From the NCBI GenBank assembly GCA_037133995.1, contig JBAXNA010000001.1, positions 1-46,921 of the forward strand: a stretch of DNA of 46,921 nucleotides, written 5' to 3'. Shown piece after piece: positions 7,949 through 43,077 of the stretch. This stretch comes from Candidatus Saccharimonadota bacterium (lineage in GTDB: Bacteria; Patescibacteriota; Saccharimonadia; CAILAD01; BJGX01). The notes beneath the pieces are model-generated. The model was not told the DNA's origin. It searched no databases and saw nothing but the letters and a program-made list of their open reading frames with translations. The number at the start of each line of letters is the position of its first letter. The stretch's first letter is position 1. Position numbers and translations under genes: made by a program.

Positions 7949-9649
7949 ATGGCTAGAGCTCTAAAAAATAAATGGATAGTTAGTAGTGAGTCAAAATCTG
8001 ACAATGCAGATTTGGCTGAGCAGGTATTGATTAATCGGGGTTTGAGTAAAACCGAGATTGAGCACTTTTTGCACCCAGATTACTCAAATGACTTAGCCGA
8101 CCCATTGCTTCTGCCAGATATGAAAAAGGCAATTGATAGAATTATTGTGGCAATAAACAAAAACCATAAAATAGTGATATATGGTGATTATGACATAGAT
8201 GGCATTACAGCCTCGGCATTACTTCAGGACTTTTTGCTGCAGGCTGGAGCCAAAAAAGTTGAAGTCTATATTCCAGATAGATTCGAGGAGGGCTATGGTC
8301 TCAACAGTGAGGCAATCACCAGCATATATGAGGCGGGTGCTGATCTAGTAATCTCTGTAGACTGCGGTGTTACAGCAGTTGAGCAAGCCTCACTAGCCAA
8401 GAAATTAGGTCTAGATTTAATTATAACCGACCACCACGAGCCGCCAGAAACTCTACCCACTGGCATGGTGGCGCTAGTTAACCCAAAGCTTAAAGGTAGT
8501 AAATATCCTTTTAGAGAGCTTGCTGGTGTAGGTGTGGCATTTGCAGTAGTGCGAGCTATTATGCAGAGTAATCCAGAAATAATTACCGCCGGTCAAGAAA
8601 AGTGGCTACTAGATTTGGTCGCTCTAGGTACTGTCTGTGACGTGGTGCCACTAGTGGGCGAAAATAGAATTTTAGCTAGCTATGGGTTAAAGGTATTGAA
8701 AAAAACCAAGCGGCCCGGCCTTAAGGCGCTATCCAAGGTTAGCGGAGTAGAGATTAATGAAGTCGACGAGTCAGACTTAGGTTTTAGATTCGGCCCTAGG
8801 CTAAACGCGGCCGGACGTCTCGAGCATGCCAAGACAGCCCTAAACTTGCTGCTGAGTGGTAGCGATAAGCATGCAGAAGAAATGGCTCAAAAACTTAATG
8901 AACTCAATATTGAAAGACAGGCTCAAACCCAAGACATTTTTTCAAGTGCCGATGCTATGGCAAAAAATCATCTGCAAGATCTAATACTGGTAATGGCTAG
9001 CTCTGAGTGGTCTCATGGTGTGGTAGGAATAGTAGCCAGTAGAATAGCTGAAAAATGGCACAAACCAACCATATTGCTGCAGATTTTAGGCGAAGACTGC
9101 AAGGGTTCGGCCAGAAGCTTTGGGGGCTTTTCAATAATCGAAGGCCTCAGGTCTTGCGACGATGTTCTTAGTCAGTATGGTGGGCATGATTTTGCAGCAG
9201 GAATGAAGCTTAGATCTGACAATATTGATCTTTTTAGACACACGCTCAATCAGTACGCACTTAAGCATATTGATATAGAGTCAATTATGCAGACAGTCAA
9301 GGTTGATGTGCAGCTTGATGACGAGCAACTAGAGCTGGAGCGAATTTCAGATCTGCATGATCTGCAGCCTTATGGTAGCGAGAATAGTCAGCCGGTATTT
9401 AGTAGTACTGTTGAGCTATATGAATATCGCAAAATTGGTCAGCATCTAAATCATGTTAAGTTTAGATTTAAAACAGCATCTCAAAAGTTTGTTGACGGCA
9501 TAGCTTTTTCATCGGCACACAAGTGGGCAGATATAGAGGTAGGCCAAGTATATGAGGTTGCCTATCACTTGCAGGCAAACGTCTGGCAAGACACCACCAG
9601 ACTGCAGCTAGAAGTGATTGATTTAAGATTACCACTAAAGAATAAGTAA
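7949..9649 (+). CDS. recJ: single-stranded-DNA-specific exonuclease RecJ
   Basis: 566 aa. DHH motifs (IYGDYDIDGITASA, VDCG, ITDHHEP), DHHA1 (GGHDFAAG) and a C-terminal OB-like region. Confidence 0.9.
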   Translation: MARALKNKWIVSSESKSDNADLAEQVLINRGLSKTEIEHFLHPDYSNDLADPLLLPDMKKAIDRIIVAINKNHKIVIYGDYDIDGITASALLQDFLLQAGAKKVEVYIPDRFEEGYGLNSEAITSIYEAGADLVISVDCGVTAVEQASLAKKLGLDLIITDHHEPPETLPTGMVALVNPKLKGSKYPFRELAGVGVAFAVVRAIMQSNPEIITAGQEKWLLDLVALGTVCDVVPLVGENRILASYGLKVLKKTKRPGLKALSKVSGVEINEVDESDLGFRFGPRLNAAGRLEHAKTALNLLLSGSDKHAEEMAQKLNELNIERQAQTQDIFSSADAMAKNHLQDLILVMASSEWSHGVVGIVASRIAEKWHKPTILLQILGEDCKGSARSFGGFSIIEGLRSCDDVLSQYGGHDFAAGMKLRSDNIDLFRHTLNQYALKHIDIESIMQTVKVDVQLDDEQLELERISDLHDLQPYGSENSQPVFSSTVELYEYRKIGQHLNHVKFRFKTASQKFVDGIAFSSAHKWADIEVGQVYEVAYHLQANVWQDTTRLQLEVIDLRLPLKNK

Positions 9650-9950
9650 TATATTCAATGAATACATATAAAGCCTTAAATAAAGCATATTATCAAGTGA
9701 AATAGTGAGTAATATATTTACCATTTTACATCTTTTACAGAATTATCTACATCAAAACTGAGCAGTTTTAGGGCTATTGTTGTGCCTCTTAAGCCCGACA
9801 CTTTGGGTCTATTACTACCAAATATTATCTTAAGTATGGGCTTATTGTTAATTGCGCTATAGCAGGCTTGTTTTTTGGGGAGTTTTAAGGTAGAATAATG
9901 CCATATTGTATTTAATTAAAAGCAAAGATAACCGAAAGGAAACTATTTAA

Positions 9951-22009: not shown

Positions 22010-22432
22010 TTACTTTAGAGTACCTATTTCATATCCTGCCAGAATCCTATTAGCTCCAGCTGAGTGCCCGCTTCTGCGCCCACCTTTAGTATTGTAAGCA
22101 GTGGTGGCATCTTGGCCACAAAATATTAGTATTAAATCGGCTCCACCCGGGTGCATGTCTAAATATTTTGTAACGTCATATACATTACCTTCTATTGCTA
22201 GCCAGCAGTCTCGCGGGGTACTATGTTTTGAAACTTCCGAAAGACCATAGGTATTACCGACAGTCTTACTGGAGTTAGAACTTTGGCTAGGCTCAGATTT
22301 TGAAGGCTGCGAATTATTAATTTGATTCTCGCTATCGGCCTCTTTCTGTTGCTTAGAGATGAAGCCCCAGCCAACCATTGTACCCATAGCAATGAAATAA
22401 AATATTAGAGTAACTAGTACAGCTTTCTTCAT
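22010..22432 (-). CDS. membrane-anchored cytochrome b5-like heme-binding protein
   Basis: 140 aa. One N-terminal TM helix, an S/N/Q-rich linker, then a b5 core WLAIEGNVYDVTKYLDMHPGG...GQDAT...GHS. Both axial His contexts are present (HPGG and GHS). The start overlaps the upstream gene's stop (ATGA). Confidence 0.75.
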   Translation of the reverse strand: MKKAVLVTLIFYFIAMGTMVGWGFISKQQKEADSENQINNSQPSKSEPSQSSNSSKTVGNTYGLSEVSKHSTPRDCWLAIEGNVYDVTKYLDMHPGGADLILIFCGQDATTAYNTKGGRRSGHSAGANRILAGYEIGTLK

Positions 22433-23733
22433 GATAGGTCAAACTCCTCTGTATTTATATTTCGTTTTTTTACACCTAGTTGCTTGAGTTGTGCTTTTAG
22501 GCTTTTCATCATTGACGGTGGACCACATATCATATAATTTGCGCCATCTAAGGACTTACTATTTTTTTGGATGTAGCTAGCGGTAAGATAGTTATTTTTA
22601 CTTTCAGTGAATAAAATAATTTTCAGATTAGATTTTTTGTTGGCTATTTTTTCTAGTGTAGGCAAATAAACTGCATCATCTTTTGTTTTAGCACAATAAT
22701 ACAAATCAACACTCTGGCTATCTTCTAGGGCTTTTGCCATGGATACGAATGGCGTTACTCCAATTCCTCCAGCTATCCATATCTGCCTAGGGTTTTTTAC
22801 AATCGCGTTAGAAAATGTTCCATAAGGACCATCTATTTTTACTTTTGTTCCAGATTCTGCTGTGGCCAGTAGAGCGGTGTAATCACCGAGATTTTTAATA
22901 CCAAAATTAAGAGATTTGTCATTTGGTCCTGAGCTCATAGAGAAAGGATGACTTTCACCAAGAACACCATCTAATTCTAGTTTTATAAAAGCAAACTGTC
23001 CTGGTGCAAATACAAGAGGCTTGTCTTGGGGTGAAAGTTGAAGCTCATAGCTATTACCAAGAGGTATGATTTTATATAAACTATAGTCTAAATATTTAGA
23101 AAAATTACCTTGAAACAATGAACGGTATACGTAGACTACGGCAGCCAGGCCAATTAGTAGCAGGTAATAAATTTGTAAGCCAATCATTCCAGTCTTAATA
23201 GCTAGGTCGCTTCCGCCCACAAAAAATGCGTGAATACCGCCTAAGAATAATACTAGGCCTAGTAAGCGCTGAGCTAATATAAATCTTTTGTAAGCAACAT
23301 GCATATATAGAGTGACTACAATTAGAGCAATCATGCAATATAGGGCGATCACACCTAAATTCTTAAATGGTGACTCAAGACCTGGCTTTACGAACTCATA
23401 AGCAGAAATAGGGGAGCTTAGAAAGTACCTAAATGTAATCAGTAATGGGTGAATGAGAAGTAGTATGAGGGCCAAGCAACCAATAATGTGGTGAGCTCTA
23501 TAGGTGTTATCTAGCCCCATGAAGAGTTTATTATAAATCTTTAGTCTTGCGCTAAGAATAACATTCCAGGCAAAAAGCGCCATACCTGCCAGTCCGGCTA
23601 ATCTGCCAAGATTGTCTGATATATTTTTGGCTGTATCGAACTGAGCCGGCATAGAAACCATCCAAATTGTAATAGGTATAACTGCCACAAATATAGTAAT
23701 AAGCCAGCCAAGATTCGTATAGCGATTTCTCAT
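22429..23733 (-). CDS. NOX / ferric-reductase-family transmembrane flavocytochrome (FRD + FAD + NAD(P)H domains)
   Basis: 434 aa. About 6 TM helices, with a His pair 12-13 residues apart in one helix (YRAHHIIGCLALILLLIHP). The FNR-type module has HPFS (FAD), GGIGVTPF (NAD(P)H) and CGPPSM. Confidence 0.8.
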   Translation of the reverse strand: MRNRYTNLGWLITIFVAVIPITIWMVSMPAQFDTAKNISDNLGRLAGLAGMALFAWNVILSARLKIYNKLFMGLDNTYRAHHIIGCLALILLLIHPLLITFRYFLSSPISAYEFVKPGLESPFKNLGVIALYCMIALIVVTLYMHVAYKRFILAQRLLGLVLFLGGIHAFFVGGSDLAIKTGMIGLQIYYLLLIGLAAVVYVYRSLFQGNFSKYLDYSLYKIIPLGNSYELQLSPQDKPLVFAPGQFAFIKLELDGVLGESHPFSMSSGPNDKSLNFGIKNLGDYTALLATAESGTKVKIDGPYGTFSNAIVKNPRQIWIAGGIGVTPFVSMAKALEDSQSVDLYYCAKTKDDAVYLPTLEKIANKKSNLKIILFTESKNNYLTASYIQKNSKSLDGANYMICGPPSMMKSLKAQLKQLGVKKRNINTEEFDLS

Positions 23734-27981: not shown

Positions 27982-28590
27982 ATGGATGCGCCTAATTTGA
28001 AGACCATGAATAACAAGAATATTTCAAAGTCTGAATTAGTAAATGCTATCACCTCGGCCCAGCAAGGCGACGAAACAGCATTTGAACTATTATATGAATA
28101 TTATTTCTCGCCACTCTACAAGTATGTACTCATAAGAACGGGCGACCCTCAAGAAGCAGATGACCTTACCCAGCTAGTTTTTATAAAGTTCTACCGCAAC
28201 CTAGCTAACTGGCAGGACAAAGGTTTTGCCCCCTCGGCTTACCTGTACACTGTAGCAAGAAGCGTATTGGCAGATCACTATCGTAAAAAAGCAAAACAAG
28301 GCAGCAAGATAACTAATTCAGAAGACGTACTTTTGGCCATAAGCGATAAGTCACAAAACCCGCACCAAGACGTTATAGATAATGAACAATTGCAGCACTT
28401 GTATCAAAATCTTCAACAGTTACCACAAAACTATCAGGAGGTTCTAACACTTCGCTACATAGAAGGTCTTTCGAGTTTGGAAATAGCCAAAATTATTGGC
28501 AAAAATGATGCAGCTACCCGTAAGCAGTTATCTCGAGCAGTTGCTGCCCTAGCCAAGAAATCAAAAAATTACAGAGAAAATAATATATGA
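27982..28590 (+). CDS. ECF-type RNA polymerase sigma-70 factor
   Basis: 202 aa. Region 2 (FELLYEYYFSPLYKYVLIRTGDPQEADDLTQLVFIKF) and region 4 HTH (VLTLRYIEGLSSLEIAKIIGKNDAATRKQLSRA). Confidence 0.85.
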   Translation: MDAPNLKTMNNKNISKSELVNAITSAQQGDETAFELLYEYYFSPLYKYVLIRTGDPQEADDLTQLVFIKFYRNLANWQDKGFAPSAYLYTVARSVLADHYRKKAKQGSKITNSEDVLLAISDKSQNPHQDVIDNEQLQHLYQNLQQLPQNYQEVLTLRYIEGLSSLEIAKIIGKNDAATRKQLSRAVAALAKKSKNYRENNI

Positions 28591-29054
28591 AAACATACCA
28601 AAAAATAGTTGAGCAAGAGCGAGTAGTTAAACAGCTGGAAAAAATCACTGTTGAACCACCTAGCAAGCGCCATCTTTTGCACAGCACATTAGCTAAACTT
28701 GACGATACCAATTATCAGTACCAAGCTACTCGCGAGCGTACTTCAAGAAAACCTGCCTATTCTAGATTAGTTTTTTATATACCCACAGCAGTGGCCGGAT
28801 TACTATTAGTGGCCTGGGTGGCCTCACCTATTCTTAGCAGCCCCAACCAAGCTATAACTTCTTCTAATGTTGCTACCAACCCAAATACTAGACCAAATGG
28901 ATCGATTCAGAATGCTACAAATGCAATAGCCGCCGAAGCTGCTAGCGAAAGCCAGATAGATGAGCAGGCAATTTCTGAAACCCTCTCAGCGGCTAATCAA
29001 ATAGTAGACCAGGCTAATCTAGTTGTGGAGGTAAGCGATGAGAAGGGTCTTTAA
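28587..29054 (+). CDS. putative anti-sigma factor (single-pass membrane protein)
   Basis: 155 aa. Overlaps the sigma gene by 4 nt. One central TM helix (LVFYIPTAVAGLLLVAWVA). The call rests on position only. Confidence 0.45.
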   Translation: MKTYQKIVEQERVVKQLEKITVEPPSKRHLLHSTLAKLDDTNYQYQATRERTSRKPAYSRLVFYIPTAVAGLLLVAWVASPILSSPNQAITSSNVATNPNTRPNGSIQNATNAIAAEAASESQIDEQAISETLSAANQIVDQANLVVEVSDEKGL

Positions 29055-29859
29055 CAGTTATAATATGCTGCTGTCATTAATTATGGCCGCGTCTATTGTT
29101 TTGGTGGGCAGTAAGCCACAGCCAGCACAAGCACAGACCGGTAGTTTAGTAAGATCAGAAATGTCATCAGAAAAACAAGCCAATATGAGCTTAGATAGTT
29201 CTAGATTGAGTGTAGCTAACGACTTTTGTATCAATATACCAAGCTTAGCTACCTCAATCAATCAGGAGGTTTCTAGTAGAATAGAAAAAATGCTAGCTAG
29301 CCAGTCTGTCGCTGGCCAAGAACTTAATAGAAAGTCTATAGAAAGGCAAAATAAAACACTAGCCCAAAGGCAGCAATGGGATAAGAATAGAGAGGCCCAA
29401 TATGATAGCTTATACAAAAAAGCCAAAAATGATGAACAAAAATTAGCGGTTGATACTTTTAAGAATGAAGTAGAAAAAGCCGTGCTGTTGCGCCGCTCAG
29501 CAAATCAGAAAAGCATGAATGAATTTGAAATAACCATAGACGGCTACCTCTTCTCAGAAAAAAATAAGCTTGCACTGGCAACTAGTAACTACCAAAAAAA
29601 CCTAATTTTAGCCACCTCAAAAGCTGTTCGGGAATGCTCTAGTGCTAGTGATCAGAGTAATGCAAGACCAGAGCTAATCAGTACACTCGCGCAGTCTCAA
29701 GTGTATATAAAAAATGGTAGTGCTGAAAACATAACAATTCAAGCTCAAATTGATGAAATTGCTAGTAAAAAAAGAGAAAGTATTAAGGCAGCCAATTTAG
29801 TTTTTGATCAAAAAATTTCTAAGGCCAAAGCAGATTTTGAGAGGACTTTTCAAAAGTAG
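29038..29859 (+). CDS. secreted K/E/Q-rich, probably coiled-coil protein
   Basis: 273 aa. Signal-peptide-like N-terminus ending AQAQ. Overlaps the previous gene by 17 nt. Confidence 0.5.
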   Translation: MRRVFNSYNMLLSLIMAASIVLVGSKPQPAQAQTGSLVRSEMSSEKQANMSLDSSRLSVANDFCINIPSLATSINQEVSSRIEKMLASQSVAGQELNRKSIERQNKTLAQRQQWDKNREAQYDSLYKKAKNDEQKLAVDTFKNEVEKAVLLRRSANQKSMNEFEITIDGYLFSEKNKLALATSNYQKNLILATSKAVRECSSASDQSNARPELISTLAQSQVYIKNGSAENITIQAQIDEIASKKRESIKAANLVFDQKISKAKADFERTFQK

Positions 29860-30501: not shown

Positions 30502-32511
30502 CTAAAATACTTCTGTTCTATTTTGCCAGCGAGGCTTAAGAAGCTCATAGCTGATCATTGAGTATATAAGCATCGATAAAGCAGCAGCGCAGCCCACCGG
30601 GTAGAGCAGAGTTGAAAGTATACTCTGTTTGGAAACAACTGTAATAATGAGCCTATTTAGGTAGCTCAGGCCAATCGCTAGTGCTAGCATCCAGAGTCCG
30701 ATAAACGAATTTATTATGAGTAGGTAACATAGCAAAATACCGGGCAATATCAAGATGAAAAACCCACCACTAACAAGACCGAATGTGAGTGGAAAAGAGA
30801 AGTGTAGGGCTGGGTAGTAGCGCCTAATAGATTGCCTGATCATTAGCCGCAGGCTAGCGTGGTTTTGACTTACGGCAATATCAGAGCCCAAGAAGAAGCC
30901 TGTATTAAGGCCTTTATTTTTAACAGCAGCTGCCAGGTCAAAGTCTTCAAGCGGACTTTTTCGTACCAGACCAAAACCACCTGCAGCAGTAATGCTTGAG
31001 CGCACAAAGGCCATTACGCTACCGCTGGCATTTACAGACTTGGGTCTGGTTTTGGCTAAAAAAGCCGAAGGATACATGCCTAGCATTAGGTAGTGGTTTT
31101 GACTTAGTATCACTTGCTGGGAAAGACTTTTATTTTGGTCGGCCGGCAAGAGCGAGACAAGACTAAGCTTTTGTTCGATTATCAGGCTAGCTATAACGCT
31201 CAGGGCATTTGGCAGAAGTATGGTGTCGGCGCTGGTGAGCAGTACAATATCGCCAGTTGCTTTTTGCAACAGCTGCTCAGACACCCAAGCATTTAAGGTC
31301 CAGCCAGCTTTGAGCGGCTTTGTCTTGACTATTTTGAGGCGAGGATCTTGAAACCCCTCGGCAATTTTTAGGGTGTTATCACTAGAGCCAAGATCAGTAA
31401 ATATAAGCTCAAATTGAGGGTACTGTTGACCTAAAATCGCTAGCATCGTAGATGAAATATTATCAGCCTGGTTGTAGGCGTGCATTATAATACTTATTTT
31501 AGGCAGTTCGCCCTGACGAGCTGTTTTAGGTCTTTTGAAGGCCCTGAGGTTGTAAATAGTAACACCCAGTTGAGCCAAGAAAAATATTATCAAGAAGAAC
31601 CCTAAGATCATTACATAATATTGCCTAATGCCAAAAGGATCAAAAACAAATAGCAAAAGTTGAGCCAGCCAGAAGCCAACCAGTAAATTTAGCCACATAA
31701 AGTTCTGCCAGCCACGACGAAACTTTGCGCTATTGGCATCTGATTTAAACTTGCTAAAAAAACTAGTATTTAGAACGTATAGCCCAATCAGCCCACCAGC
31801 AAAAATTCCAAGTGGAAAATAGGCCACAGTCACCACAAGAGCTGAAAATATATAGAGAGTCATCGCGTATCGATTGGTGCGCTTTGCGCCAAAAAATGTT
31901 GCGATAGAGGCAATTTTGGCTGCTCGGTCTGGTTTAATGTCTTGTATTGCGCCAAATGCCTGACTGGCCATACCCCAGGCCATAAAAGCTATTATCACTG
32001 CCCAGTAGTAATTGTTTGACTGACCATAGGCTAGCCCAAATACAAAAGGCATTACGAAATGCAGTGCAGAATTAATAGAGTCTAAGACGGGCACTTCTTT
32101 GAACCTTAGAGGCTTCGCACTATAGCTGATACAGAAAAAAACTAGTGCAAAAAGTATTACTCTAGACAGATTGTTGCCGGTGATTAGAAAGTAAAGTAAA
32201 AAAGGAATATTAGCTGCAATTATTACGTACCACATAGGGCCATGCTTAGATTTTTCAAGCAAGCCGCCTTCCACAGAGTTTTTGCGGGGGTTCTTCAAGT
32301 CTGATTCATAGTCGTAAATGTCATTAACCCCATACATCAGTAGATTGTATGAAAACAAAAAGTATACAAAGCCGATAATGCCCGGCAGTGCTAAGCTTTG
32401 AGTTGCTAGCAGGTAGCCAACTATAAATGGCACAGCAGTGTTTATCCAGCTCACAGGCCTGCTTGTGGCTAATATCTCTCTTATGCTTAGTGAAGATTTG
32501 TTATTTGTCAT
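30502..32511 (-). CDS. fusion protein: UbiA-family prenyltransferase (lycopene-elongase-like) + family-2 glycosyltransferase
   Basis: 669 aa in one uninterrupted frame. Residues ~1-295 are polytopic, with NDIYDYESD (NDxxDxxxD, nt 32299-32325) and QDIKPDRAAK. Residues ~338-560 form a GT-A fold (ISIIMHAYNQADNISSTMLAILGQQYPQFELIFTDLGSSDNT, LLTSAD). C-terminal TM helices follow. Confidence 0.75.
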   Translation of the reverse strand: MTNNKSSLSIREILATSRPVSWINTAVPFIVGYLLATQSLALPGIIGFVYFLFSYNLLMYGVNDIYDYESDLKNPRKNSVEGGLLEKSKHGPMWYVIIAANIPFLLYFLITGNNLSRVILFALVFFCISYSAKPLRFKEVPVLDSINSALHFVMPFVFGLAYGQSNNYYWAVIIAFMAWGMASQAFGAIQDIKPDRAAKIASIATFFGAKRTNRYAMTLYIFSALVVTVAYFPLGIFAGGLIGLYVLNTSFFSKFKSDANSAKFRRGWQNFMWLNLLVGFWLAQLLLFVFDPFGIRQYYVMILGFFLIIFFLAQLGVTIYNLRAFKRPKTARQGELPKISIIMHAYNQADNISSTMLAILGQQYPQFELIFTDLGSSDNTLKIAEGFQDPRLKIVKTKPLKAGWTLNAWVSEQLLQKATGDIVLLTSADTILLPNALSVIASLIIEQKLSLVSLLPADQNKSLSQQVILSQNHYLMLGMYPSAFLAKTRPKSVNASGSVMAFVRSSITAAGGFGLVRKSPLEDFDLAAAVKNKGLNTGFFLGSDIAVSQNHASLRLMIRQSIRRYYPALHFSFPLTFGLVSGGFFILILPGILLCYLLIINSFIGLWMLALAIGLSYLNRLIITVVSKQSILSTLLYPVGCAAALSMLIYSMISYELLKPRWQNRTEVF

Positions 32512-32794
32512 TTTTAAAATAATTAAATATTGCCGGCACTAGAATAACTGCGGCAACTAAATAGCTAAAGTCTTCTATTGGTATACTACCAATCTTTACC
32601 CCTAGTGTTGAGCTGTTATTATAGCTCACTATAGGCAGGCTTGTCAGGTAGCCGTTAAAAATTAGCATTGCAGGCAGTAAAATAGCAAATGTAATTAAGG
32701 TTGTTTTCTTTCTTGGCCAGCTTAGCTTAGAAAAATAAACTATGGCAAATACCGATAATAATAAAATGATAGCCATGGCTGGGTATTTATACAT
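32501..32794 (-). CDS. lycopene-cyclase-domain small subunit (CrtYd/CrtYf-like)
   Basis: 97 aa with 3 TM helices and an IPIEDFSY (PxE[E/D]) motif. Overlaps the downstream fusion gene by 11 nt. Confidence 0.7.
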   Translation of the reverse strand: MYKYPAMAIILLLSVFAIVYFSKLSWPRKKTTLITFAILLPAMLIFNGYLTSLPIVSYNNSSTLGVKIGSIPIEDFSYLVAAVILVPAIFNYFKNDK

Positions 32795-33156
32795 TATTTA
32801 TTTTTTACCTTTACCTTACTGCCTTGCGCGCTAAGCTTTAAACTTACTAACTGATAAACCATTAGTGTCACATAGCCAAGTAAAAACAAAAATATAAACT
32901 CTTCTAGCGGTAGATTTGGAGTAACAAAATACCAGCCAGAAACATAAGTTTGATTTGTGGTGAAAATACCAATAACAATACCGGCAACGTCAAAACATAA
33001 AAGCAGCAACGCACTAAGCCCTATGGCTAGCCCACTGGCCTTGGCATCTAAAAAAAATGCCAGCCTGTAGCGCCAGTCTGCCAATACCATTCCAGTTATA
33101 CTAAATAGCAAAATGACAATGTAGAAAAAATTAGAATAAACAAAATCAAAATTCAT
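32794..33156 (-). CDS. lycopene-cyclase-domain small subunit (CrtYc/CrtYe-like)
   Basis: 120 aa with 3-4 TM helices and an LPLEEFIFLF (PxEE) motif. 1-nt overlap with its partner subunit gene. Confidence 0.75.
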   Translation of the reverse strand: MNFDFVYSNFFYIVILLFSITGMVLADWRYRLAFFLDAKASGLAIGLSALLLLCFDVAGIVIGIFTTNQTYVSGWYFVTPNLPLEEFIFLFLLGYVTLMVYQLVSLKLSAQGSKVKVKNK

Positions 33157-33199
33157 TGTACTTATTATACTCGCAAATTTCTGATATCATATGTAAATC

Positions 33200-34702
33200 A
33201 TGGCAAAAAATACCAACAAAAGATCAGTAGTTATAGTTGGCGCAGGAATCGGTGGGCTGTGCTCTGCCGCAAGACTTCTTAAAGACGGCTACTCAGTCAC
33301 ATTATATGAAAAAGAAGCCTTGGTGGGTGGTCGCGCGCACCGTATCAAGCAAGATGGCTACACTTTTGATACTGGCCCAACCCTACTTATGATGACAGAC
33401 GTATTGTATGACACCTTTAAATACTGTGGTAAAAACCTAGATGATTATCTAACCCTTTTGCAACTTGAACCAAACTATCAGGTCGCTTTTGCAGATAAAT
33501 CTAGAATAACTGTCAGTAGCAATCTGCCTAAGTTCACTCAAGAGCTGGCCAGGTTTGACCCTAAGGCTCCAGAGCAGTTTTTTAGGTATTTTGCAGATGT
33601 CGCTGAAATATATCGTATTTCTAGAGGCGGCTTCATAGACAAAAATTTTGATAAGTTTAGTGATTTTATAAATATAGGTTCGGGCATCAAGCTCTTAAAA
33701 AAACGCGGAGTTTATAAGCTCTGGAATTTTGTAGGAAAATATTTTAAGGATCCTCGACTAAAACAGCTTTTTAGTTTTCAGAGCATGTACCTCGGTGTTA
33801 GCCCCTATGAAGCACCTGCAGTTTATAGTGTGGTGAGCTATATGGAAACTGGCCTAGGTATCTGGTATCCAAAAGGCGGAATGTATAGTCTCAGCCAAGC
33901 CCTAGAGAAGCTGGTATTAGATTTAGGTGGTGAAATAAAAACCAAAACAGCAGTAAATAAAGTCGTGATTGAAAACGGCAGAGCAAGTGGCGTGGAGATC
34001 AAAAATTCTATTTTTAAGCCAGCCGATATTGTTCTTTGTAACTCAGATCTTGTTTATAGCTATAACAATCTTCTTCCAGAATCTGTAAAGCTAAAAAGTC
34101 TGGGTCGAAAGCCCGAAGATCTTAAGCAGGCTAGCTCGGCGCTACTTTTCTACTGGGGTGTTGACTCTCAGCTAGACGGCATGCTGCACCACAATGTTTA
34201 TCTGTGTAAAGATTTCAAGAATAACTTAGAAGAAATTTTTGATGAAAAGAAACTACCCACAGACCCATCTTTCTATACCTATATTCCTACCAAGACAGAC
34301 CCAAGCCTGGCTCCAAAAGGCAAGAGCGTCGTGTATATCTTGGTTCCGGCCCCAAATCTACAAGGCAAAAACAACTGGGAGTCTGGCATACCTAAGTTAC
34401 GCAAGAAGGTATTAAACAGATTGAAATCAGAGTTTGGCCAAGACATTGAGCCGCTCATAGAGACAGAGGCTGTCTTTACACCACAAGATTTTGAGACCAA
34501 ATTTAATCTCACAGCCGGCTCGGCTTTTGGCCTCACTCACCACTTCATGCAGTCTGGTTATTTTAGACCACACAATGTTGCCAGAGGAGTTAAGGGGCTG
34601 TACTTTGTAGGCGCTAGTACTTACCCTGGCGGAGGGATCCCGATGGTCACTTTAAGTGCTAAGCTTGTACATGAGCGAATTTTAAGTGATAATAAAAATT
34701 AA
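33200..34702 (+). CDS. crtI: phytoene desaturase
   Basis: 500 aa. N-terminal FAD fold VVIVGAGIGGL...LYEK...GGR, a CrtI-type body and the C-terminal GASTYPGGGIPMV motif. Confidence 0.9.
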   Translation: MAKNTNKRSVVIVGAGIGGLCSAARLLKDGYSVTLYEKEALVGGRAHRIKQDGYTFDTGPTLLMMTDVLYDTFKYCGKNLDDYLTLLQLEPNYQVAFADKSRITVSSNLPKFTQELARFDPKAPEQFFRYFADVAEIYRISRGGFIDKNFDKFSDFINIGSGIKLLKKRGVYKLWNFVGKYFKDPRLKQLFSFQSMYLGVSPYEAPAVYSVVSYMETGLGIWYPKGGMYSLSQALEKLVLDLGGEIKTKTAVNKVVIENGRASGVEIKNSIFKPADIVLCNSDLVYSYNNLLPESVKLKSLGRKPEDLKQASSALLFYWGVDSQLDGMLHHNVYLCKDFKNNLEEIFDEKKLPTDPSFYTYIPTKTDPSLAPKGKSVVYILVPAPNLQGKNNWESGIPKLRKKVLNRLKSEFGQDIEPLIETEAVFTPQDFETKFNLTAGSAFGLTHHFMQSGYFRPHNVARGVKGLYFVGASTYPGGGIPMVTLSAKLVHERILSDNKN

Positions 34703-34707
34703 TTTTT

Positions 34708-35784
34708 ATGGAAAACAAAGACCTCAAAAGCTATATAGCCTATATCAAAAAAAATGTTGATGTAGTACTCAAAGATATTTATGATATCAAAATAGCTGAA
34801 GCTGGAAAACTTAGCAGTGATTATAAGAAGCTAGTCACTCAAACGGCCAAGCAGACTCTCAGCGGCGGCAAAAGATTACGGCCAGCTCTAGCAGTTTTGG
34901 GCTACAGCATTGCTGGAGGAAAAGACCTAGAAAAAATTATTAAGGCCTCAGCTGCTTTAGAAATATTTCATAGCTACTTATTAATTCATGACGATATCAT
35001 GGATCGTGATGACCGCCGGCATGGCGTTCTAAACATTACCGGGTTTTACAAGAAGGCCTTGAGTGGCAAGATTGCAGAAAAAGATATACTCCACGCAGCA
35101 GACTCCTTTGCCATACTGGCCGGCGATATCAATAGTGGCTTAACATTTGAACCGCTACTGGCTGCAAATTTTGACTCAAAAGTAACCCTTAAGGCCATAA
35201 GTAGGATTAACCAAGCAGTTTTTGAAGTTGCGGCAGGCCAGCACCTAGATATTATTGGTTCATTTGATAAAAAACTTTCTGAGAAAGAAATTTTAGCAAT
35301 TGCCAAACACAAGACCGCTGACTACTCAATAATATTACCTCTACAGTTTGGCGCAATACTTGCCGGCGCAAAACCAGAGCTTTTAGAAGACATGAAAAAA
35401 TTCGGACAGCCGCTTGGTATTAGCTATCAAATAGCTGACGATGTTTTGGGCATTTTTGGTAGCACCAAGACCATTGGTAAGTCAGTTTTGACAGATCTTC
35501 AAGAGGGGAAGCAGACAATACTAATGCACTATGGAATGAAGCTGGCATCTGTTGACGACAAAAAGTTGTTACAGGCTATTTTTGGCAACCCAAAGGCGGA
35601 TCAAAAAGATCTTGCATTGGTGAAAAAAATATTAGAAAGGTGTGGAGCTAAGGCCAAGACCCTTATTGTTGCAAAAGACTACATTACTAAGTCAATAAGC
35701 TATATACCTTCTTTAACAAGTGATTCAAAAATGCAAGAAAATCTTACTGATTTTGCAAATTATTGTATAAGTCGAAAAAACTAG
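34708..35784 (+). CDS. crtE: polyprenyl (geranylgeranyl) diphosphate synthase
   Basis: 358 aa. FARM LIHDDIMDRDDRRHG, SARM QIADDVLG and GKRLRP. Chain length is not determinable from sequence. Confidence 0.8.
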   Translation: MENKDLKSYIAYIKKNVDVVLKDIYDIKIAEAGKLSSDYKKLVTQTAKQTLSGGKRLRPALAVLGYSIAGGKDLEKIIKASAALEIFHSYLLIHDDIMDRDDRRHGVLNITGFYKKALSGKIAEKDILHAADSFAILAGDINSGLTFEPLLAANFDSKVTLKAISRINQAVFEVAAGQHLDIIGSFDKKLSEKEILAIAKHKTADYSIILPLQFGAILAGAKPELLEDMKKFGQPLGISYQIADDVLGIFGSTKTIGKSVLTDLQEGKQTILMHYGMKLASVDDKKLLQAIFGNPKADQKDLALVKKILERCGAKAKTLIVAKDYITKSISYIPSLTSDSKMQENLTDFANYCISRKN

Positions 35785-35786
35785 CA

Positions 35787-36626
35787 ATGAACAAGGTCAA
35801 ATTTTATACTCAAACATCTCACGATATAAATAAGCTAATTGCTACTCGCTACTCAACGTCTTTTTCCTCAGCCATGAGCTTGCTCGACGAGCCAATTCGA
35901 ACTCACCTATATAGTATTTACGGCTACGTAAGAGTTGCAGACGAACTAGTGGATAGCTTGAGACCTAAAAATAGCCAAAAACAGCTCGACGCATTTATTG
36001 CCGAAACAGACCAGGCCTTAATTTCGGGAACTAGTCTAAATCCAGTAATCCATTCTTTTGCAATAACTGCTAAACGCTACAATATCCCAGATGAGCTTAC
36101 CCGAGCATTTTTTGATAGCATGGCAATGGATATTAAAAAAACAAAATACAGTAAGGCCCAGTACCAGAAGTATATATATGGTTCGGCCGAAGTAGTCGGC
36201 TTGATGTGCCTATGTGTTTTTATTGATGGTAAAAAATCTAAGTTTACAAAACTAAAGCCTGGAGCTCGGGCTTTAGGCTCGGCATTTCAGAAGGTTAATT
36301 TTTTACGCGATATAGCCAGTGACAGCCAAGATCTTGGTAGAGTCTATTTTCCTGGTGTAGACATGAAAAAATTCACCCAAGATGAAAAGGCAAAGGTGAT
36401 AGCTGATATTAGGCTGGAACTCGCAGAGGCATCAAAGGTCATCTCTGCATTGCCTCACTCAAGTAGATATGGCGTGATGCTAGCCTGTCAGTATTATAGC
36501 GCTCTGCTTAGTAAGCTCAGCAAGACTCCAGCTAGTCAGCTAGCTAGTAGCAGGGTTCGTATCAACAATGGCCATAAGGCGGCTATCTACTGCCTGGTCG
36601 TTACCCGCAAGCTACTACATATTTGA
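35787..36626 (+). CDS. crtB: phytoene synthase
   Basis: Squalene/phytoene synthase pattern: YGYVRVADELVD, YIYGSAEVVG and LRDIASDSQDLGRVYFP. I prefer the ATG at 35787, 3 nt after the crtE stop, to the track's TTG at 35763. Confidence 0.85.
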   Translation: MNKVKFYTQTSHDINKLIATRYSTSFSSAMSLLDEPIRTHLYSIYGYVRVADELVDSLRPKNSQKQLDAFIAETDQALISGTSLNPVIHSFAITAKRYNIPDELTRAFFDSMAMDIKKTKYSKAQYQKYIYGSAEVVGLMCLCVFIDGKKSKFTKLKPGARALGSAFQKVNFLRDIASDSQDLGRVYFPGVDMKKFTQDEKAKVIADIRLELAEASKVISALPHSSRYGVMLACQYYSALLSKLSKTPASQLASSRVRINNGHKAAIYCLVVTRKLLHI

Positions 36627-36673: not shown

Positions 36674-38077
36674 ATGACAAAACCCTCCCCCCAAAAATAT
36701 GTTAATGTAGACGGCATCTTATACGATGTAAGCTCGGGCCGAGAGCTTGATAAAAATCAAGTACCTGAAGTTTTGGATCTAAGAAATAATAGTAATCTCT
36801 CAAGACAATCAGTCTCATTGGCAACAGCTGGCTCACCCAGAAAATTCACCACTTATCACTCTAGCTCAGCCCCGCAGCAGCCTCAGCATCAGCCTAAATC
36901 ATCCACTAGGCCACATCTAGATAAACCAAGTAAATCTACTCATCAGGCCAAATCGAGTGATAAGCCAAATGATAACGGCCCTAATGACGCAAAAAAGATT
37001 AGCTTTTTTAGTTTTGTTATTGCCCGCGGTATTCTGCCTCGCGGTAGCCTACAGCTTTGGCAGGCCAGCTTATTTAGAACTATAGCAAGTCCTCAGACCT
37101 GGCTACTACTAAGTCTGCCACTAATACTTGTTCAATTTAGGGTTATACAAAATCTCAATCTGAACCAATTTTTGGTTAAAGCCAAAGACACTGTGACACC
37201 AGAAAATTTTCAGGTAGTAACAGTTTCGCTGGGGGTGATTATGGGTCTGTTTTTGTTAGGCGTTATCGTGCGCTCAATAATTACTTCTGCAGGAGTTCAC
37301 GTCAGGCTCAGAGAAATAGATAATCGACCAGCCAAGCTGAGCCTTGGTATTCAATCTGCCATGCATTCACTTTTGCGCCAAATGCTAAACTACATAGTGC
37401 ACTTTGCAATCATTGTCTTGTGGAGCGGGTTATTAATTTGGCTCACCGCTATGGTTTTAACGACCGGCAATAGTTTGGTTTCAACAAACAAATATCAAAT
37501 AGCCGCAGTCGTAGGTTTTGCCTGGTTATTCGTTATGGTACTGCTCTACACCAAGCACTGGCTTCAGATAGGCCTACTCTCTAGAAGCAGCAAGGTGGCT
37601 CGGGTACAGCTACAGAGTATTTCATTATTGTTTTCGTCTCCTCTAAAAAATGCCATGGCAGGCCTAATAGGATTTTCTTTGTCAGCCAGTGTAATATTGC
37701 TAATTCTAGCGATGAGTTGGTTCGTGACAGATTACTTTATTGCCCAGAAAGGCTCACCAGTGATAGCGATTTTAGTAGTTATTGCTATCACTACTGTAGT
37801 TCTGCTAACAAATCTTACCTATGTACAACAAAATCTCTGGGCCAGGCACTACTATTTTGTGGCATCACTTTCTAAAAATCGTAATCAGCTTTTATATATG
37901 GAGCGCGAAAAGCCGGCTTCAAGCTGGCCTCTATATGTAGCAGTCTTACTGGCCAGTGTCTTTGTGGGCAGTTATTTTTTACTGATCAATCTGTACGGCT
38001 CAAGAATTAGAGGTGAGATGGCCAATATTCACTCGATGATACCAGAAGAAATAAAACTAGTCGTTCCACTAAAATAG
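36674..38077 (+). CDS. hypothetical polytopic membrane protein
   Basis: 467 aa. A ~110-aa soluble, low-complexity N-terminus (S/P/Q/K-rich), then about 8 TM helices. No recognisable motif. Confidence 0.5.
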   Translation: MTKPSPQKYVNVDGILYDVSSGRELDKNQVPEVLDLRNNSNLSRQSVSLATAGSPRKFTTYHSSSAPQQPQHQPKSSTRPHLDKPSKSTHQAKSSDKPNDNGPNDAKKISFFSFVIARGILPRGSLQLWQASLFRTIASPQTWLLLSLPLILVQFRVIQNLNLNQFLVKAKDTVTPENFQVVTVSLGVIMGLFLLGVIVRSIITSAGVHVRLREIDNRPAKLSLGIQSAMHSLLRQMLNYIVHFAIIVLWSGLLIWLTAMVLTTGNSLVSTNKYQIAAVVGFAWLFVMVLLYTKHWLQIGLLSRSSKVARVQLQSISLLFSSPLKNAMAGLIGFSLSASVILLILAMSWFVTDYFIAQKGSPVIAILVVIAITTVVLLTNLTYVQQNLWARHYYFVASLSKNRNQLLYMEREKPASSWPLYVAVLLASVFVGSYFLLINLYGSRIRGEMANIHSMIPEEIKLVVPLK

Positions 38078-41338: not shown

Positions 41339-41415
41339 GCTTATGATTGCTCAAAAAAATATAGCTATGTTAAGCTAGACAAGACCTACTAGTGTACCTA
41401 CAAGAAGGAGGCAGA

Positions 41416-43077
41416 ATGAGTGCCAATCAAAATCCATATGTATCTAGAGACGAAGAAGGTAACTGGCAGATCACGCCAGCCGGACATTCGTACCTAGCCC
41501 ATAAAGTCACCAGCTCAGAAGAGCAGGTCTACGCTTTTACCAAAGAAGCCGACCCGGTTGAAATAGCCGCAGCAATGGCAAGGCTTAGTAGGCGCGAAGG
41601 ATCTCTACTGAGCTGTATTCTAGACGAGTTTGCCATCAAAGACGAAGGCGCAGACGACTTGCTAGACAGAGTGATAACTAGCTATGGTGATGACTCAGTC
41701 GCTAATCTATATAGTTTCTATATAGTCAATGAGTCAATCAGTAACCTGGCTACAAAGCAGGTAGAATGGGGTCGACTGGCGTCGTACCTAGAGCAGTCCA
41801 CTCGCTACATCTTCTATACCCAGAAGCAGGCTAATGGTAGGTATAAGTACTACCTGCCTAAGAATTTGCCAGCCGAACTGCTAGCTAAATATATAGAGAT
41901 CAATGACAAGATATTTGATTTGTACTCTAAGACAGTAGAAACTGTCACTGAGTATGTGCGCAGCCAAAATCCTAGACCACAAAAAGATCAAGATCGGGCA
42001 GGCTGGTTGGCCTGGAACGGAGCAACACGAGCTCAGGCTTGTGATGTGGCTAGGGCAATACTGCCAGCATCAACGCTATCAACTGTTGGCATACATGCTT
42101 CAGCGCTTAGTGTTGATAACATGGTCAAGCACCTCTGGGCCCAGCCCTTGGGCGAGCTCAATGAGCTAGGAACAAAAATCCTAAGTGCTTCAAGACAAGT
42201 GGCGCCAGTTTTTATGCGCCGCACAGACCTTGAAGACCGAGGCCTTGCTGACGTTGCATACCGCCGCGACAACAGACAAAAAGTTAAGCAAGTTGTTTCA
42301 GAGCTTAACAGTCTGTACTTGCTTCATAATAAGCCTCATGATGTAGAGGTAAAGATAGTCGACTTCTGGCCATTACGAGAAGAAGATTTTCTGGCTAGAC
42401 TGTTGTTTGCAGAATCAAGTCTGTCCCTAGATCAGCTTCGGGTAAATCTAGAGGTAGTAAAGCTCAACATGCAGCCAAAAGATTTTGAAAAATACATCGC
42501 CAATTGTATCTCGCAATATTGTGGTGAAAGGCTAAATCGCAGACACAAGCCCGGCAGAGCCCTTGAAAAGCCAAGACTAGAAATAGAGATTGTTGGAGAT
42601 TATGGAACATTTCGAGATCTCCAGCGACACCGTATGGTCGATGGGTTTGAGTGGCAAAGGCTTAGCCCAGATTTGGGCTTCGATGTGCCTGGCCTCATTA
42701 TAGAGGCTGGCTGTGAAGATGATTTTCGTGAGGCATTTAGACTTTCAAAAATGCTCTACAGAGAATTTCAGCATGCTGGGTACCCAGAAGAGTCACAGTA
42801 TGCAATCTGTATGGGCTATAGAATGCGTTATAGCTTTATTGCCAATGTACGAGAGCTTTTTCATCTTCTAGAGCTACGCACCAGCCCCCAGGGGCACCCC
42901 GGCTACCGATATATCTGCAACGAAATATATAGCCAGCTAAAAAATATCTGGCCAAATGTTGCTGCCGCCATGATCTATGTCAACAAGACCGATGATCTAG
43001 GTGAGCTGACAAGAATGGCATCTGAGCGAAATACAATTGAAAAATTAAATAAGCTTGGAATAGCCCAAGACCAGTAA
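41416..43077 (+). CDS. thyX: FAD-dependent thymidylate synthase ThyX, double-length form
   Basis: 553 aa from the ATG at 41416 (GAAGGAGG upstream). The ThyX signature DLQRHRMVDGFEWQRLS (RHR...S) lies in the C-terminal half. The N-terminal half is ThyX-like but lacks RHR. Confidence 0.8.
   Translation: MSANQNPYVSRDEEGNWQITPAGHSYLAHKVTSSEEQVYAFTKEADPVEIAAAMARLSRREGSLLSCILDEFAIKDEGADDLLDRVITSYGDDSVANLYSFYIVNESISNLATKQVEWGRLASYLEQSTRYIFYTQKQANGRYKYYLPKNLPAELLAKYIEINDKIFDLYSKTVETVTEYVRSQNPRPQKDQDRAGWLAWNGATRAQACDVARAILPASTLSTVGIHASALSVDNMVKHLWAQPLGELNELGTKILSASRQVAPVFMRRTDLEDRGLADVAYRRDNRQKVKQVVSELNSLYLLHNKPHDVEVKIVDFWPLREEDFLARLLFAESSLSLDQLRVNLEVVKLNMQPKDFEKYIANCISQYCGERLNRRHKPGRALEKPRLEIEIVGDYGTFRDLQRHRMVDGFEWQRLSPDLGFDVPGLIIEAGCEDDFREAFRLSKMLYREFQHAGYPEESQYAICMGYRMRYSFIANVRELFHLLELRTSPQGHPGYRYICNEIYSQLKNIWPNVAAAMIYVNKTDDLGELTRMASERNTIEKLNKLGIAQDQ

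Follow-up and report, generated by a model that had tools for sequence, protein, structure and literature searches.

A 46,921-nucleotide stretch of DNA from a Candidatus Saccharimonadota bacterium (contig JBAXNA010000001.1 of assembly GCA_037133995.1; hereafter the window) contains, at positions 30502-36626, a cluster of six genes that probably encodes a self-contained pathway to a cyclic C50 carotenoid glycoside akin to decaprenoxanthin, sarcinaxanthin or C.p.450. One of the six is a fusion gene whose protein would join a lycopene elongase of the UbiA family to a family 2 glycosyltransferase (GT2). The basis for this reading is family membership, motif integrity, synteny, vertical inheritance and the co-evolution of the elongase half of the fusion with the surrounding carotenoid (crt) genes; we infer the substrate chain length, a cyclase specific for C50 and not C40 substrates, which acceptor receives the sugar, what the pigment does for the cell and where its precursors isopentenyl and dimethylallyl diphosphate (IPP and DMAPP) originate.

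Architecture of the carotenoid locus

An initial annotation of the window had described two operons that diverge across 43 bp and hold six genes between them, and every open reading frame (ORF) was recovered at its coordinates and on its strand. Direct reading of the sequence shows an AT-rich intergenic region at 33157..33199 from which the operons diverge. On the minus strand it is followed by the genes for a CrtYe-like first lycopene-cyclase-domain subunit of 120 aa (32794-33156), a CrtYf-like second subunit of 97 aa (32501-32794) and the 669-aa UbiA–GT2 fusion (30502-32511). On the plus strand lie the genes for a 500-aa CrtI-family phytoene desaturase (33200-34702), a 358-aa short-chain trans-prenyl diphosphate synthase in the CrtE/IdsA role (34708-35784) and a phytoene synthase, CrtB, of 287 aa (35763-36626). 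Both operons are tightly packed. The stop of the 120-aa subunit gene overlaps the start of the 97-aa subunit gene by 1 nt, and the latter gene overlaps the start of the fusion by 11 nt; on the other strand a 5-nt gap separates crtI from the prenyl synthase gene, which then overlaps crtB when crtB is read from TTG 35763 inside the upstream gene, an ATG at 35787 being an equally plausible start. A promoter scan of the locus found no consensus sigma-70 match in the 43-bp spacer, and a terminator scan of the locus returned a count at the level of shuffled sequence, which is uninformative. The gene set matches the crtE/crtB/crtI/crtYe/crtYf/crtEb (plus glycosyltransferase) complement, in agreement with the C50-style cluster proposed in the initial annotation, and its elongase exceeds the cutoff of a CrtEb-type model as described below.

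Predicted enzymes of the cluster

The N-terminal half of the fusion (residues 1-295; 31627..32511, minus strand) is a predicted CrtEb-type lycopene elongase, an assignment that follows from a curated protein model. PF01040 matches residues 27-272 with 82.8 bits, and the traits of the UbiA superfamily are present, namely a predicted fold of multiple transmembrane (TM) helices and two Asp-rich motifs in same-side loops after helices 2 and 6. Both motifs, NDIYDYESD (residues 63-71) and DIKPDR (residues 191-196), are intact. NF009608, the model satisfied by actinobacterial CrtEb-type elongases, gives 322 bits against a cutoff of 217, whereas the domain fails NF009516, the model satisfied by the LyeJ clade, with 152 bits where 205 are required. 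For comparison, NF009608 gives 447 bits for the elongase of Agromyces, 433 bits for that of an Actinomycetota crtB-crtI-Ye-Yf-Eb locus (L049) and 413 bits for a cyclase-elongase fusion, and the clade of P0204, a protein annotated in IMG as lycopene elongase/hydratase (dihydrobisanhydrobacterioruberin-forming), scores 215-274 bits on NF009516, above its cutoff, and 145-155 bits on NF009608, below that model's cutoff. The UbiA half is also 42-46% identical to the elongases within actinobacterial crtB-crtI-Ye-Yf-Eb operons. The possibility left in the initial annotation of an unrelated UbiA enzyme, such as one of menaquinone or heme O synthesis, does not describe this domain.

An exhaustive search with residues 1-300 against 1.84 billion representatives returned 101 relatives at E <= 1e-30, which have one of three architectures: stand-alone proteins of ~290 aa, a cyclase domain joined to UbiA (~400 aa) and UbiA joined to GT2 (~670 aa). 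Two further proteins extend this picture. In P0119, a metagenomic protein of 742 aa, UbiA and GT2 are accompanied by a lycopene-cyclase domain, which places three consecutive steps of C50 tailoring on one chain. A CrtEb-type elongase homolog named from a "Nanoarchaeota archaeon" metagenome-assembled genome (MAG) (P0124/P0265; NF009608 255 bits) suggests that a DPANN symbiont lineage may carry C50-type genes, unless it reflects a binning error.

The two small minus-strand proteins were expected to carry the PxE(E/D) motif of heterodimeric lycopene cyclases, and both LPLEEF (120-aa subunit) and IPIEDF (97-aa subunit) were confirmed and are conserved across orthologs, with LPxEE kept in >=90% of 39 orthologs of the former and P[IV]ED in >=90% of 40 orthologs of the latter. 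Both exceed the TIGR03462 cutoff of 39.4 bits (46.6 bits for the 120-aa protein, which has no Pfam match, and 49.9 bits for the 97-aa protein, which also matches PF18916 with 56.7 bits). Compared with the subunits of L049, the 120-aa protein is 43% identical and the 97-aa protein 44% identical over residues 55-97.

The CrtI-family protein, the sole desaturase in the window, scores 483 bits on TIGR02734 (cutoff 238), and its matches in the PDB include a gamma-carotene desaturase (4REP, 277 bits) and the CrtI of Pantoea (4DGK, 268 bits). CrtB matches PF00494 (SQS_PSY) with 153.5 bits (cutoff 26) and is 41-42% identical to CrtB of the C50-type loci of Agromyces and L049. The prenyl diphosphate synthase matches PF00348 (polyprenyl_synt) with 175 bits. 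It had been described as carrying both DDxxD motifs; the first is present as DDIMD, with Tyr at position -5, and the second is instead DDVLG, a DDxxG motif. Its best PDB relatives, the geranylgeranyl diphosphate (GGPP) synthase 3LK5, which ranks first, and the farnesyl diphosphate (FPP) synthase 8F8F, both share DDxxG, and 28 of 35 orthologs have F or Y at position -5.

The fused glycosyltransferase domain

That a UbiA prenyltransferase is joined to a glycosyltransferase, as the initial annotation had it, is borne out by the presence of PF01040 (82.8 bits) and PF00535 (52.3 bits) within the one 669-aa ORF. The remainder of the fusion (30502..31626, minus strand) comprises a linker TM helix, a GT2 domain of the GT-A fold and three C-terminal TM helices. 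The family traits of GT2 (GT-A) enzymes are present: PF00535 (residues 340-454) and PF13641 (43.9 bits) both exceed their cutoffs, the GT2 region spanning residues ~337-568, and an alternating beta/alpha domain is modelled at residues 339-568. The best NCBIfam matches are HpnB (105.7 bits, cutoff 379) and CruG (59.5 bits, cutoff 600). Three motifs, ADT, LPADQNK and SQNH, are conserved, and D429 and T430 are invariant even in distant fusions of the Chloroflexota type; the motif reads xAD and not the classical DxD. A separate GT2 protein encoded beside the Ye-Yf-Eb genes of locus L054 has generic similarity only and is no close homolog of the fused domain.

How might two such domains be placed relative to the membrane? 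In an AlphaFold2 model computed on a 16-sequence alignment of the fusion (pLDDT 86.6, pTM 0.82), nine helices make up the UbiA part and a tenth (296-324) serves as linker to the GT-A domain (339-568), after which come three C-terminal helices (residues 573-658). Motif 1 lies at the end of the helix spanning residues 42-66 and motif 2 follows the helix spanning residues 170-189. Because ten helices precede it, the GT-A domain would share a membrane face with the Asp-rich loops after helices 2 and 6. The catalytic face of UbiA enzymes is cytoplasmic, where DMAPP and nucleotide sugars are available. By analogy, both catalytic centres of the model are predicted to occupy one face, taken as the cytoplasmic one. 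Foldseek comparison of the GT domain returned PcManGT (6YV7), SpsA, ArnC and hyaluronan synthase (E 2e-9 to 1e-6) as well as cellulose synthases, and the best PDB matches are membrane GT2 enzymes with lipid or polymer acceptors.

Two further loci (L038 and L044) keep the crt genes and intact UbiA motifs and have strongly diverged GT2 motifs (for example HQDVLLYPA and VGDPTKQ); these lineages may produce a non-glycosylated product.

Loss of crt genes with decay of one domain

Both UbiA motifs (NDxxDxxxD and DxxxDR) are intact in every one of the ~31 loci that retain crt genes. What becomes of the fusion when its neighbors are lost? Eight Saccharibacteria loci with enough flanking sequence (L022, L027 and L031-L036) have no crtI or cyclase genes beside the fusion gene, although L031 keeps a diverged SQS_PSY (crtB)-like ORF (8997-9830) and L032 an ids homolog. 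UbiA motif residues are substituted in seven of these eight loci, as in L033 with LDHSIDSICED and SIPSIKVDR, and in the eighth, L027, the sole change affects the proline within motif 2. All eight keep the GT2 motifs (ADT, LPADQNK, SQNH). The same pattern appears in overall identity, the median ratio of UbiA to GT identity being 1.18 among crt-bearing genomes and 0.88 between crt-less and crt-bearing ones, with GT identity unchanged at 0.46 in the latter comparison. The degraded L033 copy scores 180 bits on NF009608, under the cutoff that the window copy passes. A tree of the GT2 half indicates at least three independent crt losses: L033 and L035 nest in a crt-bearing group (190/200), L022 falls separately in the same group (200/200), L031, L032 and L036 form another clade (200/200), and monophyly of all eight crt-less loci was recovered in 0/200 replicates.

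The decay of the UbiA half where crt genes have been lost ties its prenyltransferase activity to the carotenoid genes. The preservation of GT2 motifs and GT2 identity in crt-less loci shows that the GT2 half is under selection even where carotenoid genes are gone, and it may have another or an additional acceptor and a carotenoid-independent role.

Distribution and origin of the cluster

A scan of GTDB species genomes with an alignment of the 16 closer fusion sequences recovered the fusion in ~47 Saccharibacteria/Saccharimonadia species genomes, including Baikal-deep-G192, G207 and contigs of 0.80 and 0.64 Mb (JAXLZU010000001.1, 797,647 bp, and JAXLZV010000001.1, 643,864 bp). An exact copy of the fusion protein occurs on a JGI metagenome contig. 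Clustering at 90% identity leaves over 100 groups of homologs, of which those with a name belong to Candidatus Saccharibacteria. Given this spread, and because the genes already figure in two papers, the earlier description of a pigment pathway here as unexpected was overstated. The ~31 loci with enough flank share the order L1-L11-nusG-mem467-crtB-ids-crtI <> Ye-Yf-fusion … sigECF, where <> marks the divergent spacer. Across these loci the fusion protein is 40-83% identical and nusG 75-94% identical to those of the window, and a chromosomal site that stays fixed while the fusion diverges this far implies long purifying selection.

In a neighbor-joining tree of UbiA domains, the Saccharibacteria fusions form one clade (86% bootstrap) that is not nested within the actinobacterial core, and the UbiA–GT2 fusions of the Chloroflexota type form a separate clade (81% with P0190), which implies that the fusion is either ancient or arose more than once. 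CrtI shares 53-83% identity with other Patescibacteria proteins and 28-31% with CrtIs from C50-type loci of Actinomycetota. Its nearest counterparts outside Saccharibacteria are named Patescibacteria and Parcubacteria proteins (56%) and a protein on a 0.5-Mb contig (53%). Two of the contigs that encode these counterparts, the Patescibacteria loci L058 (GCA_004297735.1) and L060, carry all six genes in the divergent order of the window, their elongase being unfused and ~280 aa long, and the Parcubacteria contig has crtI-crtB only. The occurrence of this layout with an unfused elongase in other Patescibacteria implies that the architecture is older than the GT2 fusion and shared within the phylum.

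The initial annotation had proposed acquisition from actinobacterial hosts. Since CrtI groups with other Patescibacteria (53-57% identity) and not with Actinomycetota, and the elongases are monophyletic outside the actinobacterial core, that proposal is unsupported. Its companion claim that any transfer was not recent fared better, as did the statement that the cluster has no tRNA, integrase, repeat boundary or compositional break. There are 0 tRNA genes in the window, no integrase domain among the window ORFs scanned and no flanking repeats at the cluster, the repeats present being short and at chance level; GC content is uniform (0.37-0.43 across the cluster, 0.414 for the window). This comparative evidence marks the cluster as a long-standing component of the Saccharibacteria chromosome that has been passed on vertically. 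An ancient transfer from Actinobacteria would be compatible with these data, and a recent or demonstrable one is not supported.

A related unfused arrangement occurs in L052/L053, ENA metagenome contigs of up to 468 kb (GC 0.54) in which a divergent crtB-ids-crtI <> Ye-Yf-Eb cluster adjoins the chemotaxis genes cheA, cheC/X and cheD. The window CrtI is 34% identical to that of L052, and the L052/L053 CrtI scores 610 bits, against a cutoff of 640, on the model for the bifunctional phytoene/3,4-desaturase CrtID.

Genomic context

The host organism is a reduced-genome Saccharibacterium, as had been surmised from the window, and does not belong to the normal-sized pigmented lineage considered as an alternative. 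The identification follows from nusG and L11, which are 87-94% and 72-92% identical to those of the closest named Saccharibacteria MAGs (L004-L008, L043), and from the presence of the cluster on the 0.64- and 0.80-Mb Saccharibacteria contigs. Among the ~45 non-overlapping ORFs of >=100 aa that were scanned in the window, most are housekeeping genes (fmt, def, priA, secDF, recJ, ybeY, dgkA, adk, map, ftsA, ftsZ, nrdR, ileS, ftsW, nusG, L11, L1, thyX, glyA, L10 and L7/L12). The window also encodes a dCTP deaminase-like protein, ABC/FtsX transporters and an extracytoplasmic function (ECF) sigma factor, and it contains an L10 leader. No rhodopsin or further carotenoid-family gene was found among the window ORFs scanned; rhodopsin-bearing Saccharibacteria have been described as having no blh (PMC9296517).

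Several neighboring genes merit description in their own right. On one side of the cluster, at 27982-29859 on the plus strand, the ECF sigma factor is followed by two overlapping unannotated ORFs (155 and 273 aa) that may be an anti-sigma module; synteny between the sigma factor and the cluster extends to many Saccharibacteria loci, and the sigma factor is also kept at several crt-less ones. On the other side, positions 36674-38077 (plus strand) encode a 467-aa multi-pass membrane protein (mem467) that matches no Pfam family and begins with a long stretch of low complexity. It is detectable between crtB and nusG in about half of the loci at 20-47% identity, and some crt-less loci have it too. 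The L1 gene (39472-40443, plus strand) carries an N-terminal extension of ~120 aa ahead of the Ribosomal_L1 domain at residues 121-309, and L11, with a GTG start, appears to be N-terminally extended as well; these are either real extensions of the type seen in candidate phyla radiation (CPR) bacteria or mis-called starts. A 561-aa ThyX with two Thy1 stretches (41392-43077, plus strand), apparently a tandem duplication followed by fusion, lies between the dCTP-deaminase-like gene and glyA, in a block that splits the nusG-L11-L1 ... L10-L7/L12 ribosomal run. Finally, two overlapping minus-strand genes encode a cytochrome b5-like haem-binding protein (22010-22432) and a ferric-reductase-type membrane protein (22429-23733) that is NOX-like and carries FAD_binding_8 and NAD_binding_1, an unusual-looking redox kit for a Saccharibacterium. 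Locus L054 has a similar pair of an NAD_binding_1 protein and a 433-aa protein at a distance of 4 kb from its Ye-Yf-Eb genes.

Discussion

How would the six proteins work together? In the proposed pathway, the prenyl synthase would produce GGPP from C5 prenyl diphosphates, CrtB would condense two GGPP into phytoene and CrtI would desaturate phytoene to lycopene. The CrtEb-type UbiA half would then add a C5 unit to each end of lycopene, so that an acyclic C50 intermediate with hydroxyl groups forms, a heterodimer of the two small cyclase-domain proteins would close the end rings, and the GT2 half would transfer sugar to the terminal hydroxyl(s) of a product that stays membrane-bound. Such a pigment could serve in photo- or oxidative protection or in membrane tuning in a freshwater Saccharibacterium.

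Several features of this scheme have counterparts in known systems. Corynebacterium glutamicum makes decaprenoxanthin glucosides with crtE-cg0722-crtB-crtI-crtYe-crtYf-crtEb and crtX, and crtEb together with crtYe/Yf and a glycosyltransferase is the complement of known producers of glycosylated cyclic C50 carotenoids, including Micrococcus luteus (PMC5401885). The C50 clusters of cultured Actinomycetota relatives, arranged as a MarR-idi-crtE-crtB-crtI-Ye-Yf-Eb operon (Agromyces, L056; Paenarthrobacter, L057, with Yf and Eb fused), have the same enzyme complement, Ye-Yf-Eb order, gene overlaps and NF009608 elongase as the window, and their CrtB, cyclase subunits and elongase domain are mostly 36-46% identical to those of the window (28% for Paenarthrobacter Yf). 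The window differs from them in its two divergent operons without MarR (CrtR) or idi, in a glycosyltransferase fused to the elongase where the actinobacterial clusters have a separate crtX, in its Patescibacteria-specific CrtI lineage and in its host, a reduced-genome epibiont reported to be without C5 synthesis.

The fusion itself is likewise reminiscent of known proteins. In Dietzia, a cyclase subunit is fused to the elongase (LbtBC-like). Such a fusion in Paenarthrobacter (P0131) and another in a further relative (P0130) resemble the window protein in joining the elongase to the enzyme of a neighboring step; however, the partner in cyclase–elongase fusions is an N-terminal cyclase subunit, and in the window it is a C-terminal GT2 connected via an extra TM helix. 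Fusions of the Chloroflexota type (P0102-P0120, for example in a Limnocylindrales MAG) have the same UbiA–GT2 architecture, at 30-33% identity over 81-99% of the length, yet their UbiA domains belong to a separate clade distant from that of Saccharibacteria. The Patescibacteria loci L058 and L060 have an Eb<-Yf<-Ye <> crtI->ids->crtB layout identical to that of the window and a CrtI 53-56% identical to its own, but with a stand-alone elongase of ~280 aa without GT2 and in another chromosomal neighborhood.

Some observations weigh against a glycosylated cyclic C50 product. The heterodimeric cyclases of C40 and C50 pathways are one family, indistinguishable with the sequence models used. CrtI also scores 307 and 287 bits on CrtD models, under their cutoffs, and the Tyr at -5 of the prenyl synthase is ambiguous, fitting a C20 or a C15 product, as this position is Cys in the GGPP synthase 3LK5 and Trp in the FPP synthase 8F8F. 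The GT2 half scores under the cutoff for every named family and is retained where the carotenoid genes are gone. Moreover, no idi, methylerythritol phosphate (MEP) or mevalonate gene was found among the scanned window ORFs, and a search for idi near the Saccharibacteria loci found none. Freshwater CPR classes other than Gracilibacteria, including Saccharimonadia, are reported to have only a C10-C20 isoprenoid module (PMC9166423), which leaves the substrate supply unexplained.

What else could such genes make? Four other explanations were weighed, each of them much less likely than a cyclic C50 pigment. One has been published and concerns bacterioruberin: a 2023 study assigned lyeJ, crtD and cruF to Baikal-deep-G192 and other Patescibacteria and read them as a bacterioruberin pathway, leaving the cyclase pair unmentioned (PMC9948471), and the locus of that genome (L012) has the layout of the window. 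An acyclic bacterioruberin-type C50 carotenoid would then arise from a LyeJ-like elongase/hydratase, a CrtD/CrtI desaturase and a CruF encoded elsewhere in the genome, and the resemblance to the LyeJ/CrtD/CruF pathway of haloarchaea and some Actinomycetota is real in that there, too, a UbiA-family elongase adds C5 units to lycopene. The window CrtI reaches 287-399 bits on CrtD and CrtID models, and because some Actinomycetota make bacterioruberin (PMC9948471), membership in NF009608 need not exclude an acyclic product. This explanation is nonetheless quite improbable, as the elongase half fails the LyeJ-clade model and passes the CrtEb-type one, the window has one desaturase only, a Pfam scan of the ~45 window ORFs produced no CruF candidate, and a conserved cyclase pair that would be useless for bacterioruberin stands upstream of the elongase and is lost together with crtI. 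Another unlikely alternative is a C40 pathway ending in a CrtYc/Yd-type lycopene beta-cyclase, with the UbiA–GT2 protein acting on some other lipid such as a polyprenyl-phosphate or cell-envelope glycolipid. It would accommodate the shared cyclase family, the survival of the GT2 half after crt loss and the appearance of the polyprenyl-phosphate glycosyltransferases ArnC and PcManGT among the closest solved folds. It does not account for a UbiA half that passes the CrtEb-type cutoff and is 42-46% identical to the elongases of actinobacterial operons, for the decay of UbiA motifs and conservation with crt loss in at least three lineages, or for the Ye-Yf-Eb order with overlapping genes, which is the canonical C50 arrangement.

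A C30 diapocarotenoid, built by an FPP synthase, a CrtM-like "CrtB", a CrtN-like "CrtI" and a CrtQ-like GT2, is very improbable. The best NCBIfam matches of the SQS_PSY protein are HpnD and HpnC, its best PDB match is a CrtM, and the aromatic -5 residue of the prenyl synthase resembles that of 8F8F; the C30 staphyloxanthin pathway, moreover, employs a GT2 enzyme. However, CrtB of both Agromyces and L049 gives the same HpnD-first profile, and a profile common to CrtB of C50-type loci is no evidence for a C30 pathway; the window CrtB is presumed to have C40 specificity. An aromatic residue at -5 with an uninserted DDxxD is also typical of archaeal-type GGPP synthases, and we know of no natural pathway that joins C30 backbones with a lycopene elongase and cyclases. 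Could the cluster be an artefact, either a mis-binned or chimeric contig of actinobacterial and Saccharibacteria DNA or a decaying relic? The window is metagenome-derived and some Saccharibacteria have lost or degraded the pathway, but the junctions on both sides recur in ~31 independent assemblies, including the 0.64- and 0.80-Mb contigs, GC is uniform and no catalytic motif of the window copy is disrupted, and synteny effectively refutes this explanation.

For the glycosylated cyclic C50 pathway, the question then becomes where the C5 units originate. As Saccharimonadia are reported to have no C5 pathway, the precursors are probably host-derived. A broader and more doubtful proposal joins the separate threads: ultra-small, host-dependent Saccharibacteria without IPP/DMAPP synthesis would make a glycosylated cyclic C50 pigment via a bifunctional fusion from host C5 or prenyl precursors, and the GT2 would have a second, carotenoid-independent lipid acceptor. 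A second acceptor, possibly scavenged host lipids or carotenoids, would explain how the GT2 half survived at least three losses of the pathway.

Carotenoid genes in Saccharibacteria, the enzyme families and their chemistry were already known, and the cluster is a lineage-wide trait and no oddity. Besides the 2023 report, a study from 2024 listed crtB, crtE and crtYf in a Saccharimonas MAG, together with a "ubiA" assigned to ubiquinone (PMC11484240). New here are the reading of the product as cyclic and glycosylated, the way the two enzymes are fused, the constant place of the cluster in the chromosome, a CrtI lineage specific to Patescibacteria and the finding that the pathway was lost repeatedly while only one domain decayed; no description of an elongase–glycosyltransferase fusion was found in the searchable literature. 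The analysis would revise both published readings, that of lyeJ/crtD/cruF as a bacterioruberin pathway and that of ubiA as a ubiquinone gene. The fusion would also represent a compact natural two-step enzyme that could serve in the engineering of C50 carotenoid glycosides, and the repeated crt losses with one-domain decay constitute a natural experiment that ties the elongase domain to carotenoid synthesis and gives a hint that the glycosyltransferase has a second role.

CPR/Patescibacteria are commonly portrayed as having no lipid, isoprenoid-precursor or secondary-metabolite biosynthesis. A complete pathway under selection at a fixed site in ~31 loci suggests that Saccharibacteria of environmental and mostly freshwater origin depend in some way on a membrane carotenoid, and since each molecule would need ten C5 units, it raises the testable question of their origin. 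If the host does supply the precursors, isoprenoid transfer from host to epibiont could be read directly from the pigment.

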